Positions 43,397 to 64,000 of a stretch of 64,000 nt of DNA are shown one piece after another (position 1 is the stretch's first letter; every line of letters starts with the position of its first letter). The notes under the pieces are model-generated. The model was not told where the DNA came from and made no database searches. It was given only the letters and a program-made list of their open reading frames with translations. The stretch comes from Ostrea edulis. Lineage: Eukaryota. The translations under genes were made by a program, and so were the position numbers. The stretch spans positions 27,342,001 through 27,406,000 of the forward strand of contig NC_079170.1 of NCBI RefSeq assembly GCF_947568905.1, written 5' to 3'.

Positions 43397-43630
43397 AGTA
43401 GTAAGGGGGACAGTACACAGTCAGTATACAGTCAAGATGACGTCATGGGTTTTTCCCCACATAGGTCATTGAGGTCAGGGGTGAGTACACAGTCAAGGGG
43501 GAGTATACAGTCAAGGGGGAGTATACAGTCAAAGGGGAGTATACAGTCAAGGGGGAGTATACAGTCAAAGGGGAGTCTACAGTCAGAGGGTGAGTCCACA
43601 GTCCAAGGGTGAGTCCACAGTCAAGGGTAG
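43397..43630 (+). repeat. Putative left terminal inverted repeat of the Polinton, with an 18-bp tandem array
   Basis: Begins AGTAGTAAGGGGG; TGACGTCA at 43438-43445; GAGTATACAGTCAAGGGG-type units at 43490-43626. Candidate 6-bp TSD CTTGCT at 43391-43396. Confidence 0.7.
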
Positions 43631-43661
43631 GTGAGGAGGTGATTAGCAACACTTAAAGGAT

Positions 43662-43800
43662 TAATTCACATAGCAACAGTCGAAGGATGATACCATAAAT
43701 ATCTATTGTCAGGGTCACCTTAGTTCATATAGCAACAGTTGAAGGATGATACCATAAATATCTACTATCAGGGTCACCTTAATTCACATAGCAACAGTCA
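43662..43800. repeat. 64-bp tandem repeat (about 2.3 copies) in the Polinton left end
   Basis: AATTCACATAGCAACAGTCGAAGGATGATACCATAAATATCTATTGTCAGGGTCACCTT... repeated. Confidence 0.9.
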
Positions 43801-44128
43801 AGGGAGGGATCTAAAAATATCCTTTTTTGTCTGCTATAAAAAGGCCAAGTTTTAAGATTCTATGCACAACCATTACTTGCAATCAAAAGATCCAATTCAA
43901 TTGAGTAAGTAATATTTTATTATCATATTTACCACAAATTATGAACACATTTATGGATATTTTGAAGACATAAAAAGTAAAATTCCATCTACTTGTACAA
44001 TAAAAGCTGCCCTCTATAACGTTACTTTTTTTTCTTATTAAATTATGAACTGATTAACAATAAGAAATTGTCAATCAGTATATAAAATATCAAACAAATC
44101 TCAATGGATATTTACAGTTTTACACAAT

Positions 44129-45699
44129 TCATAGTATGGTATTGACGTTATTGTTAATGTCAATATCACAAGTTGTGAATTTCACTCTCTTTTTCTTTGG
44201 TGTCACGGGAGCCAACTGGTCCTCCAAATAATTAACAATAATGTTCATTTGTTCCAAGTCCTTTGAAACGCGGTCGCTCAAATCTCGGAGTAATTTAAAT
44301 TGTTCTGCTAACGGCTCCCTCAACCTCTTTTCCAACAAATTATATTTCTCAGGATTTTTTCGTCTACAATAAACAGGATAAAAATGACATGTTGCAATAA
44401 AAAAAAAATCAATTCAAGATATTTTATATTAGTTCCTTTTCCCCAGATTAGAGATGATGTTAATATGCATAATATTTAAATTTTATGATATTTAAATTTT
44501 TTTTTAAATTTTCTCTAATTCAAACATTATAATAATAAACAAAGTATAAATAAAATGTTTATGTTTACCGGAAAGTAGTAAGGATGGAATTCTCACAGTT
44601 TTCGAAACTGTCCAAAGGTTCCTCGTCAATCACGGTTGCTAACCGCCAGTTTGAATCCATGGCCGGCGAGTACATGTAACTGGCTGAGGTGCCGCAGTTG
44701 TGCTGGCTCTCAGGTCTAAAGAGATATGGAGAGGATTACTTTCCTTTGTACTTCGATAATTTAGTTTGAACATAAATTTAATTTTACTTCATAAAAAGCA
44801 GTTAGTCTTTGGCACCAAATAAAACATTGATGTACATCATTCCAATTCTACGTATATAAAATGTTAAGAAGAAACGAGAAACTTGGAGATTTAATACTTT
44901 GAAGAGATAGAGGGAGAAAATACTCGTTATCTGTTTAAAATTTACTAAATATAATAAAAATTGTTAAAAGGAGGGAGAAAATACTCGTTATCTGTTTAAA
45001 ATTTACTAAATATAATAAAAATTGTTAAAAGGTGTAACATTACACTAAAATGATTGGAAAATTTATGGTTCTAAAATCATTTCAAGTCTAAAATTAATGT
45101 TTATATATACCTTTTAAGTAGAATTGTCTCGGTTTGACTTGTACTTTCGGGGGTAGGAGTGGAAGGCCTTTAAAAGAATATATAACACACTTTCTGATTC
45201 CAATTAAAACATTAATATTTATAATGTATATTATCTATATAACGTGAAACAAAGCACTACATGAAAGTAGGCATATCAAGCCAAAGAAAGATAACTCTTA
45301 TAAAAGCTGTTAAACTCACCGCTTTGGCAGGCCTTCCATTTCCAACTCTTCACTCATCTTCAACCACATTTGTTCGAACTCCTCGAATGAATTTGCTGAA
45401 TTTGTGGAGTCGCTGTCAGGAGAAAAAATAAATACTGTAAATCAGACCCATACTGAATTCAAAAAAATTCCATTTCTAGTTCTTCACCCATCAAGCTTAG
45501 AAAAAAAACCTCAAACTATGTAATATATACTGAAAGATACATGTGAAATTCAAATAATTAATATATAGAGCACTAAATATTCACAACTAAGTACTGAAAT
45601 TTTACGCTCCAACCCGGGGTCGAACCAGCGACCTGGCACCCTCCGCCTAGCAAGACTGTCAACTCAGCACATTAGCCCATTCGGCCAAGATATGACCTC

Positions 45700-45764
<65 letters not shown>

Positions 45765-45981
45765 GTAAAAAAATATTTTTTAAAAATTGTTCTACTTACA
45801 GAATGTCAAGAAACTTTTCTGCCATGATCAGATTTTTTGTCAATGATAATTTCTGTTTGCAAACTCCATTTATATATAATTTCGGGTGGACGTTATGGAT
45901 GATGATTAGGTCTTTGGAGTTTCTTAACTCTAATTTCGTAACACTATAATTGGTTGGTTGAGTAATGACCGAGAAGTGCCC
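44129..45981 (-). CDS. Spliced Polinton left-arm gene (at least 4 exons), unknown protein with a coiled-coil-like segment and a C-terminal PKKKRVKF motif
   Basis: Exons 45981 (or ATG 45825)-45800, 45412-45320, 44715-44569, 44363-44129. All are GT-AG and phase 2, and the frame is open throughout (166 aa from ATG 45825). The start exon is uncertain. Confidence 0.65.
45605..45690 (-). ncRNA. Pol III promoter-bearing tRNA-like sequence (SINE head or small RNA) inside the Polinton left arm
   Basis: Consensus A box TGGCCGAATGG and B box GGTTCGACCCC, 50 nt apart; no convincing cloverleaf. Confidence 0.4.
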
Positions 45982-47359
45982 CTATTGATCGTATTTATCA
46001 TCTGCACCCCTTTTAGTCACGTTTGAAAAATACCGCCCGGTTGTCCAATACCTGCGCAAACATTGCAGCAGGAAGTGTCCCACTTATTTACGTGGCCTCA
46101 ATAATTAACTCGGTTAATGATCTCAGCTTACTGATTAATTTTACACAAAATATATATGTATTATGAATGTAGTTATGGAACAACATCAATCATTGTATTT
46201 CCGCTGTATATTATATAATCATTAATTCCTACACGAATTACTAACAATTAGTTTACTAACTTTAGGGGGGGGGGGGAACCGAACAATTTCATGGAGACAG
46301 GATCAGAATCATGCTCATTTCTATATATGGTTGGGGAAACTGGAGACTCTTGTCTGTCATTATATCATTGTATCAGCTTGAAATGTACATGAGGGCTATT
46401 CTCAGCCAGCGCCAGTACTGAGTAGGGAAAATAAACAATCAAAATAATTTGATTATAAAATACATTTATTATATATGATATTTAAAGGGTCACCAACATG
46501 CGTAAAAATGGTGGTGTGACTGAATGTGTGAGATTTGTGACACACACTTGTCTCATACAAAAATGTCCTAATGATTTGTTATATAATTTCGGAACCGTCT
46601 TTCAAACCAGGGGGGCAGCTCCGGAATTTGAAGCTACGGTTAGAGTGGGCGCCGTCCGGGTTTTATGCAAGGGGTATGATCAGCCCTGGTTGGGGCCCAG
46701 GGGACGATTTTTAAAAAATAATTTTTAAACGTTTGTAAATATAAGACCTGCAAAATCACAGCAAAACTCCTGTCATGTAGAAATATATCTTTTTTACTTT
46801 TTTTCTTACGAATGGTTGTAAATTAATCAGATTATTAAAAAAAAATCAAGTTCAATAGGACGATTTACTGATGAAGTTGAAAAAGATAACCATGCCCGCT
46901 TGTATTGTACTCGTATAATAAACATCAAAGAGTCATTTTAAACGCTACTTTGTAAAACCAATTACTTAAAGTCGAGTGACTGACACATTTGAATAAAAAA
47001 AAGAATAATAAGAATAATCAGAGTTTCCATATTTGCAATAACAGTGGCGGATCCAGAGATTTTTTATTCCAATGAATGATATTGTATTTTTTGTTCAACA
47101 TGTAGGGAGAGGGTGAATTAAGTTTTTATAAACTGTGCCCAATCCCGTTGTAATATTTGATATAAAATAAATTAATGAATTATAAGATAAATCTAATAAC
47201 TCATTTAGTAAATGAGACAAAGAAAAGATTAATGGGATGTCGAAAAAAATATGGTATGAATTGATGAAAAGTGTAAAGGTTGCGTTGCTGATGGAAATAC
47301 CCGCGAATCCTCCGTCACATGATCAATTTAGCTCATGCGACTTTTTTATCAAATGGAAA

Positions 47360-63107: not shown

Positions 63108-63224
63108 CAAAACTCTCACAATAAAAAAAATGAAGTTAACCCGTATCCTCTCTGAGACTTGTTCAGGACTGGTGAAAATCATTCAAATCGATCAAATTTA
63201 TACATCATTTAATCACGTGGTTCG

Positions 63225-63413
63225 TGACTGTAGACTCCGCCTTGACTGTAGACTCCCCTCTGACTGTAGACTCCCCTTTGGCTATATACTCCCCTTTGGC
63301 TATATACTCCCCCATGACATCAGTGACTGTAGACTACCCTCTGACTGTAGACTACCCTCTGACTGTATACTACCCCACGACGTCAGTGACTGTAGACTTC
63401 AATTTGACTGTAG
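63225..63413 (-). repeat. Internal inverted copy of the terminal 18-bp tandem motif
   Basis: 63256-63273 is the exact reverse complement of 43573-43590 (GAGTCTACAGTCAGAGGG); about 9-10 related units. Confidence 0.9.
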
Positions 63414-63438
63414 AAAACACTGGCTGTAGATTTTGACA

Positions 63439-63681
63439 TTACAGATCTTTAACATTATGGGTTTCCAAGTTTTGTGTATGAAATTGAGTACGCATTATTT
63501 GTACATTTTTCTCCAGTATAGGATTTAAAACTTTTGATGCATGATGTATTCTTCTTTGAAAACGATATCTGTCCAAAGCCATGGTCATCCATTCCCCCTT
63601 TCGATCTTCATAGGGAATATAGATAATCGTTTTCTTGTCTGAAAATGTCACAGTCTTGCCCATAGTTTCAAGCTTTGACAA
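63439..63681 (-). CDS. PPP1R15 (GADD34)/ICP34.5/DP71L-like PP1 regulatory protein
   Basis: KTVTF RVxF motif followed by RKGEW...ALDRYRFQRRI....KVLNPIL, which is the PP1/eIF2alpha-binding signature. Confidence 0.88.
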   Translation of the reverse strand: MSKLETMGKTVTFSDKKTIIYIPYEDRKGEWMTMALDRYRFQRRIHHASKVLNPILEKNVQIMRTQFHTQNLETHNVKDL

Positions 63682-63706
63682 TTCAACATTTTATTCATGC
63701 ATCACT

Positions 63707-63937
63707 TTATATACGATTCTGTGCTTTTAAAATAGATTCATCCATATGATCGACAGATGTTTTAAGGTACTGCCACTGTGTTTTACTCAAGGTAATTCCT
63801 TTGTTCCCCGGTTTTCCAGCATGAAATCGTCGTATGTCAATCTGTATGGTGTCGTTGATGCATATCATGGCATATACTTCGTTCGAGAGTGGGTACCGAT
63901 CCACGTATGAACATGTTTTAATAACATCTTTTTCCAA
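63707..63937 (-). CDS. Stand-alone PC4/Sub1-like ssDNA-binding protein
   Basis: IQIDIRRF..GKPGNKGITLSKTQWQYL is the PC4 signature. Confidence 0.85.
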   Translation of the reverse strand: MEKDVIKTCSYVDRYPLSNEVYAMICINDTIQIDIRRFHAGKPGNKGITLSKTQWQYLKTSVDHMDESILKAQNRI

Positions 63938-64000
63938 AGTAGGGCGTAAAACACAGTCTACCTGATTAGGTTTTTTCTTCTCGTGTAAAACACTGACAGC

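Follow-up and report, generated by a model that had tools for sequence, protein, structure and literature searches.

A probably young and still mobile Polinton of Ostrea edulis with a conserved polB intron and an 8.4-kb multi-exon accessory arm

Polintons/Mavericks are elements with an AGTAGT end that carry a DNA polymerase B (polB), an rve integrase, a protease, an ATPase, a major capsid protein (MCP) and a putative minor capsid protein (mCP) in two converging modules, with accessory regions on both sides and a size within 13-25 kb (PMC10748475, PMC8097293; here and below, papers are cited from the available parts of each source). For Mavericks, sizes of 12.7-24.6 kb are given and accessory arms are usual (PMC8097293). 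The same traits were observed in an element of Ostrea edulis that lies in a 64,000-nt stretch of NC_079170.1, hereafter the window, where it runs from position 43397 to beyond the right edge at 64000. Very probably, it is one insertion-polymorphic copy of a young, still-mobile Polinton family of the adintovirus type, in which the 8.4-kb left arm is a constant component.

Compared with the Polintons/Mavericks described, the oyster element differs in that a conserved spliceosomal intron interrupts its polB and in that its left accessory arm reaches 8.4 kb and holds a 5-exon and an 8-exon gene (genes A and B). Its ATPase stands on the capsid strand, whereas that of vertebrate Mavericks goes with polB (PMC8097293). 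With adintoviruses it shares an animal host, an integrase with a chromodomain and accessory genes upstream of polB (PMC8502044, PMC11071296). [quoted passage not shown] Unlike in adintoviruses, no LxCxE motif occurs in gene A or gene B, and the label "Oncoid", considered for the arm genes, was dropped for that reason. Nematode Mavericks likewise have a 2-5 kb region with intron-containing cargo beside the left terminal inverted repeat (TIR), as well as a type I membrane protein, MFUS-1 (bioRxiv 10.1101/2022.07.12.499685). However, their core genes are intronless and their cargo comes from host gene families, and the predicted type I membrane protein of the oyster element, the gene B product, consists of a mucin stalk bearing a small Cys domain that has no fold match.

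A preliminary description of this DNA had recognised a Polinton, an identity that is borne out by the presence of polB, rve integrase, protease, ATPase, MCP and the AGTAGT end. It had also placed the left end at 43397, where CTTGCT precedes AGTAGT, and sequencing reads agree. Of 24 listed runs (9 studies), 20 share 0.89 or more of the words sampled from 43300-53299, and contigs from four of these were aligned to 39800-59799, the depth figures coming from the best 16 of 5986 pieces. No RNA run is among those listed, which has no bearing on expression. In run X6, a contig of 1021 nt aligns from 42811 to exactly 43396 and continues with 435 bases from off the stretch, at near single-copy depth (41 vs 54). 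This contig is an empty site, and the insertion is polymorphic for presence and absence. The left boundary at 43396/43397 is thereby fixed independently, and the (AGT)2 end motif coincides with the empty-site boundary, at the left end only. The preliminary description had taken the insertion to be recent and proposed a search for empty-site haplotypes; one was thus found, in a single run, together with near-identical copies.

The O. edulis copies of MCP (2 of 2) and of the CARD-PC4 protein encoded further to the right (3 of 3, in the same cluster) are 99.7-99.8% identical at the protein level, and so, at 99.7%, are five of six integrase copies, the sixth being at 97.9%. It follows from this likeness that the family is young. 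O. edulis RefSeq models encode proteins identical to the window gene products, and the 8 insertions or deletions shown inside the element (10 more rows are not among them) all lie outside modelled exons. For comparison of gene order, intron and selection, use was made of the metagenome contig L002, which shows about 70% identity across 11 kb and shares the gene order of the window element.

The left arm (43397-51805) has a GC content of 33% (polB 43%, host flank 36%) and an observed/expected CpG ratio of 0.59 (polB 0.99, host flank 0.44). Being in both respects nearer to the flank, being rich in introns, holding an (AT)30 run and a tRNA-like piece, and being shallower than the core in raw reads, it could be host DNA that happens to separate a stray repeat resembling a terminus from a Polinton beginning close to polB, or else a set of recently captured host genes. 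This is very improbable and already largely refuted. Measured against the contig of a single-copy host exon of the LHFPL family (contig depth being only a rough guide to copy number), the arm stands at 7.8-9.4x and the core at 10.0-10.7x in run X13, and at 5.2-8.1x and 7.6-9.1x in run X6. Three contigs, each with 1-8 differences from the window, span the junctions: 43547-44857 (depth 950) links the terminal array with gene A, 45776-48060 links genes A and B, and 49872-52141 runs from gene B into polB. Moreover, the empty site stops exactly at AGTAGT, BLAST gives zero matches between the arm and the 43 kb of host flank, and the relatives of gene B that carry a name are without exception oyster proteins with the same overall architecture at 35% identity, as would be expected of a gene long resident in the element. 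In RefSeq, the accessions for genes A and B come in three consecutive pairs, one of them probably the window locus; the records that hold them measure up to 112, 89 and 77 Mb.

The arm is therefore best interpreted as belonging to the element, as an accessory region of long standing whose gene architecture is host-like, and an ancient capture of gene A or gene B from a host is possible. The earlier account of about 8.4 kb of AT-rich, intron-containing sequence between AGTAGT and polB is upheld, as is its spliced cargo, in the form of two predicted multi-exon gene models with GT-AG introns. Its term "host-like" suits the architecture of the arm; fresh capture of host DNA is not shown, gene B having homologues in other oysters. 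Between genes A and B, at 46600-46705, a GC-rich island of 100 nt was noted that has no open reading frame (ORF) or RNA family and folds no better than its shuffles.

Several observations weigh against the picture of a mobile family with a fixed arm and cargo. In raw reads the arm:core depth ratio is 0.71 in run X23 and 0.47 in run X24, so some related copies are without this arm or have a diverged one; L001 is 93% identical. The earlier expectation of further copies with the same left arm is thus supported by the multicopy arm depth and the RefSeq pairs and qualified by this shortfall. No single contig covers the whole aligned stretch 39800-59799. The RefSeq models of the arm genes are predictions and not proof of expression, and one search for gene A homologues outside O. 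edulis gave none (1 hit among 44 candidates). That gene B homologues in other oysters are linked to Polintons is suggested by record length and accession proximity, not by DNA. Finally, the 74-aa accessory protein discussed below is only 40% identical to its L002 counterpart, with a ratio of nonsynonymous to synonymous change (dN/dS) of 0.47 over 60 codons.

The two ORFs that make up polB, of 992 and 501 aa, have no internal stop, and Pfam DNA_pol_B_2 is above cut-off on both (E 9e-21 and 3e-25). The 992-aa frame stops just past a YEFY motif, and the polymerase motifs stand in another frame. Motif patterns were used for polymerase, integrase, protease and ATPase, the domain support coming from Pfam. 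With these, the exonuclease and palm motifs of polB were found, as were the DDE, protease H/D/C and Walker A/B motifs, in line with the intact catalytic residues of the preliminary description; one polB pattern, V.WEH, had no match. That description also held all six core genes to be uninterrupted, which is true of the other core ORFs, free of stops, and not of polB, split as it is by 135 nt.

In L002, polB has an intron of 120 nt at the identical position and with a similar GC-rich hairpin. Since the position is the same despite near-saturated synonymous sites, the intron is an inherited feature and not damage. A disabling insertion that makes this copy non-autonomous would recall the description of intact vertebrate Mavericks as intronless (PMC8097293), but with canonical GT-AG ends, a compatible phase, an identical position in a saturated relative and both exons under constraint it is hardly credible. 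The intronless core of the vertebrate "intact Maverick" (PMC8097293) is indeed lacking here on account of the polB intron; it is a descriptive trait, outside the family definition given in PMC10748475. Surveys demanding intronless ORFs would score elements with such polB introns as dead.

The intron hairpins are marginal in folding (z -1.6 in the window and -1.9 in L002, with 10 of 200 shuffles folding as well in each). At 54790-54845 and in the L002 intron, a poly-C/poly-G hairpin followed by GGCGGCG was seen to be conserved, the rest of the intron having diverged. The mollusc pPolB2 group carries a VSR endonuclease insertion in polB (PMC10748475). Here, the start of polB exon 2 gave a weak restriction endonuclease (REase) match (E 0.11), and the intron presumably splits a VSR-type motif. 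Residues 1-531 match no Pfam family; at residues 246 and 378 stand candidate Cys and His motifs of an OTU-like domain.

Regarding the minus-strand block, described earlier as abutting or overlapping, its ORFs are separated by 2, 2, -4, 14 and -16 nt at several junctions, and the statement fails between protease and ATPase, where the gap is 109 nt. The MCP, which belongs to a cluster of 86 members and has no sequence match in PDB, is 91% identical in L002 at saturated synonymous sites (proportions of nonsynonymous and synonymous differences 0.055 vs 0.78). For the ATPase, dN/dS against L002 is 0.054. The putative mCP, a protein that in Polintons has a single jelly-roll fold, is 79% identical, with a dN/dS of 0.068; it has no Pfam or PDB match, its single-sequence model failed, with a predicted local distance difference test (pLDDT) score of 36, and the name is given from position, size, conservation and pattern. 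Such strong constraint on MCP, mCP and ATPase argues for a particle stage in use now or recently.

It could also be that the element is by now an intragenomic, self-synthesising transposon only, that virions are no longer made and that the defence-blocking genes are relics or protect the transposing cell. This is a sizeable, though minority, possibility. Scans of the IMG/VR viral contigs with four queries (MCP, an MCP alignment, polB exon 2 and the terminal 20-mer) turned up no relative, and Polinton virions have not been observed according to the available part of Jeong 2023 (PMC10748475). On the other side stand the constraint just described and the phylogeny of the CARD-PC4-PC4 protein. In a FastTree analysis of 25 named sequences out of 85, the 60 unnamed or partial ones being left out and no formal clade test being applied, the window-like copies group with those of C. 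angulata, S. echinata and P. imbricata (support 0.99), apart from three other O. edulis sequences. This grouping fits movement from host to host and also old parallel subfamilies.

At the other extreme, the family might be an unrecognised adenovirus-like nuclear oyster virus that alternates between integration and particles, moves between genera and uses the conserved, hairpin-containing polB intron as a replication splicing switch. It would have a counter-defence set of its own: a protein that recruits a phosphatase to eIF2-alpha, a DNA-binding protein with a fused CARD as decoy, and a surface glycoprotein resembling mucins whose fold family would be new. As a whole, this reading is unlikely.

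For the young, mobile Polinton family that is preferred here, a life cycle can be proposed from what is known of such elements. The rve integrase would insert the linear genome with a 6-bp duplication (PMC10748475, PMC8097293), polB would replicate it by protein priming from the AGTAGT ends, and MCP, mCP, ATPase and protease would package it. Since the introns of polB and of genes A and B have to be removed by the host spliceosome, expression would be nuclear and by host RNA polymerase II, as in adenoviruses and unlike in a cytoplasmic giant-virus factory. The accessory genes would suit a virus that needs translation to go on and the cell to stay alive.

Gene A has introns that are all in phase 2 with GT-AG ends, and RefSeq models P0086 and P0089 match its exons 2-5; exon 1, outside that match, is inferred. 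The product of about 185 aa has an acidic N-terminal half and, at the C-terminus, a basic stretch like a nuclear localisation signal that overlaps an RVxF-type motif, KRVKF. No protein family and no usable Atlas match were found for it. Tentatively, it may be a nuclear regulator that docks protein phosphatase 1 (PP1). In intron 1, at 45590-45761 on the minus strand, a piece of about 100 nt with A and B boxes like those of a tRNA was observed beside the (AT)30 run. It has no Rfam match and a folding z of -1.3, and raw-read depth is not raised, so it does not belong to a host repeat of high copy number at 95% identity. Perhaps it is an old short interspersed element or a polymerase III unit of the element.

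Gene B is predicted to encode a type I membrane protein with a signal-like segment from the Met at 47360, a 6-Cys ectodomain, a Ser/Thr-rich (33%) stalk of five 39-aa repeats, one transmembrane helix and a Pro/Ser-rich tail. The RefSeq "mucin-2-like" models P0087, P0088, P0091 and P0092 correspond to it and carry 3 or 5 repeats. An exhaustive search of 1.84 billion proteins gave 6 hits, namely the O. edulis model and 5 others, and the clusters with names are from S. echinata, S. cucullata and C. angulata, all oysters. Full-length homologues keep the entire layout at about 35% identity, and that of S. echinata is separated by 12 accession numbers from a CARD-PC4 gene whose record is equally long. 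The ectodomain has no Atlas match; its model (pLDDT 70, predicted template modelling score 0.52) has a best fold match of Z 2.7 and no Foldseek match at E<=0.001, which points to neither a new nor a known fold. An alternative Cys-rich frame in exon 1 was rejected, as it has many stops and the wrong phase and homologues conserve the open frame. There is about an even chance that gene B encodes a glycosylated surface protein for shielding or attachment. At its C-terminus (50590-50632), a short basic motif is kept in P0154, P0157 and P0172 despite 35% identity; it consists of TRxK and then an RxL/KKLxF-like stretch, and resembles cyclin-docking or histone-tail mimic motifs. Near the terminus, the region 43644-43910 is a possible inward promoter with a leader exon.

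To the right of the integrase, the CARD-PC4-PC4, GADD34-like and PC4-like genes and an internal inverted array were missed in the earlier reading. The array lies upstream of an E-box and a TATA that precede the CARD-PC4-PC4 gene; in L002 the E-box and TATA are present and the array is absent. It probably acts as an enhancer. Given its inverted orientation, its 78-87% identity to the left array and its absence from L002, the array could instead be a decayed right TIR, the element ending at about 63.4 kb with a second one beyond. This has very little probability, for the array has no ACTACT end (none occurs anywhere after position 40000 within the window), the GADD34-like and PC4-like genes beyond it keep the L002 order, and a TIR divergence of 13-22% sits badly with copies 99.7% alike. 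The element is thus longer than 20.6 kb, as had been proposed, its right end being outside the window and the L002 gene order continuing to the window edge. Polintons/Mavericks are bounded by TIRs and by target-site duplications of 5-8 bp, and the right-hand copies of both would lie beyond that edge. The L002 orthologue of the last, PC4-like ORF has 150-161 aa, against 97 aa visible in the window, so the element runs on beyond 64000 by some 160 nt or more, in addition to a TIR.

The CARD-PC4-PC4 protein was matched by Pfam CARD (E 9e-13) and, in two stretches, by PC4 (E 3e-14), and the Apaf-1 CARD was matched as well. Its 85 homologues include named ones from Ostrea, Crassostrea/Magallana, Saccostrea and Pinctada. 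PC4 folds are single-stranded DNA-binding proteins. The oyster protein might, with slightly less than an even chance, bind single-stranded DNA and employ its CARD in death or antiviral signalling, either as a decoy or as a module for oligomerisation. In L002, the orthologue of the PC4-like ORF carries a hydrophobic segment at its N-terminus. A 75-aa ORF without Pfam family was noted at L002 820-1047, between the PC4-like and GADD34-like genes, and is absent from that place in the window element.

The 74-aa protein matches Pfam PP1c_bdg (E 8e-6, at the cut-off) and, in PDB, DP71L (E 4e-5) and PPP1R15B (E 7e-5). It has an RVxF motif, an RxGxW-x5-DRxRFxRRI block and leucines that match L57 and L61 of DP71L, and L002 has an orthologue in the same place with the motifs kept. 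It shares these motifs with PPP1R15A/B (GADD34/CReP), DP71L of African swine fever virus and ICP34.5 of herpes simplex virus, and its size is similar to that of DP71L, in which two leucines matter for function (PMC5346070). Unlike these proteins, this predicted PP1 regulator is encoded by an integrating oyster element. It is likely that it recruits host PP1 to dephosphorylate eIF2-alpha and so lifts translation shut-off. In C. gigas, the eIF2-alpha kinase PERK is reported to be induced by poly(I:C) (PMC9680061).

Table 1. Coordinates of the element's features in the window
Feature	Position	Strand	Basis
Candidate 6-bp target-site duplication CTTGCT, left copy	43391-43396	+	Sequence; empty-site contig
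Left terminus AGTAGT with subterminal array of 18-bp units (8.4 copies), probable TIR	43397-43627	+	Array at 43474-43627
59-bp repeat (2.4 copies), TATAAA at 43835, donor-like site near 43905	43644-43910	+	Sequence
Gene A, 5 exons (45825-45800, 45412-45320, 45167-45111, 44715-44569, 44363-44129)	44129-45825	-	Exon model; RefSeq
Gene B, 8 coding exons (47237-47672; five 117-nt repeat exons starting at 48192, 48481, 48987, 49276, 49788; 50098-50142; 50292-50632)	47237-50632	+	Exon model; RefSeq models; oyster homologues
Protein-primed polB, two exons (51806-54764, 54900-56500)	51806-56500	+	Pfam; motifs
polB intron, 135 nt, phase 1, GT-AG, GC-rich hairpin	54765-54899	+	Sequence; L002 comparison
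Two small conserved ORFs, 89 and 117 aa, labelled PZ/PM by position	56597-57204	-	46% and 67% identical in L002
A32/FtsK-like packaging ATPase	57219-57902	-	Pfam Pox_A32 E 0.0014, below cut-off; Walker A/B
Adenain-like maturation protease	58012-58494	-	Pfam Peptidase_C5 and C48 above cut-off; H/D/C motif
Double jelly-roll MCP	58491-59807	-	Pfam DJR-like E 0.003, below cut-off
Basic 169-aa ORF (PW position) and putative mCP, 145 aa	59810-60759	-	Position; mCP at 60322-60759
rve integrase with C-terminal chromodomain	60780-61934	-	Pfam rve E 1e-11, Chromo E 8e-11; DDE motif
CARD-PC4-PC4 protein, 327 aa (356 aa from upstream ATG at 63182)	62112-63095	-	Pfam; Apaf-1 CARD
Internal inverted copy of the terminal 18-bp array	63225-63414	-	78-87% identical to 43465-43630
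GADD34/CReP/DP71L/ICP34.5-like PP1-recruiting protein, 74 aa	63439-63663	-	Pfam; PDB
PC4-like ORF, cut by the window edge	63707-64000	-	Pfam PC4 E 4e-6

As for the surroundings, the LHFPL-family exon lies at 39838-40425 on the minus strand, and the element starts about 3 kb upstream of it. The flank from 40467 to 43134 is mostly high-copy repeat by depth; the inverted-repeat ends of a host repeat like a miniature inverted-repeat transposable element were seen at 42620-42840, and a tRNA-like host piece, uncalled by ARAGORN or Rfam, at 42930-43020, about 400 bp left of the insertion site. The sole tRNA called by ARAGORN, a tRNA-Leu(AAG) gene at 31682-31755, and an assembly gap of 131 N at 34661-34791 are both outside the element. 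Many host minisatellites with periods of 32-79 occupy positions 1-31000, and a 151-bp repeat family is duplicated at 20536-21200 and 23901-24564. Over 40000-64000, Rfam gave nothing at gathering score, and matches in the arm were at chance level only.

In the literature, the O. edulis genome paper, in its available part, gives only a Maverick count (PMC9679248). The available supplement of PMC11071296 lists an ICP34 gene on Adinto8540 and PC4 genes in at least 35 occurrences on adintoviruses; among its entries are adintoviruses of mussel and pearl oyster, and an adomavirus of a clam carries a CARD label there. An ICP34.5-like gene is therefore not new as a gene type, and full-text literature gave no paper joining Polintons with GADD34, ICP34.5 or an eIF2 phosphatase. 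In the searched parts of that supplement (two of the four places with "card"), no CARD-PC4-PC4 fusion, mucin-stalk protein or Ostrea element is mentioned, and the accessory-gene terms are absent from the supplements of PMC8502044 and PMC11131425. What was not found described in the literature searched is the combination, in an active oyster family, of three features: a polB with a conserved intron, a mucin-stalk protein that is specific to oysters and encoded by many exons, and a CARD-PC4-PC4 fusion.

Animal Polinton particles have not been observed, as far as the available part of PMC10748475 goes, and the O. edulis family would be a good place to look for natural expression, free linear DNA or capsids. 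It is attractive because its copies are 99.7% identical, a living population holds an empty site, the capsid genes are under constraint and putative counter-defence genes are present, all in a farmed and well-sequenced oyster. In addition, RefSeq annotates the arm genes as host "mucin-2-like" or "uncharacterized" and the CARD gene as a host gene, and it follows that some expansions of immune genes or mucins in oysters may be Polinton genes.

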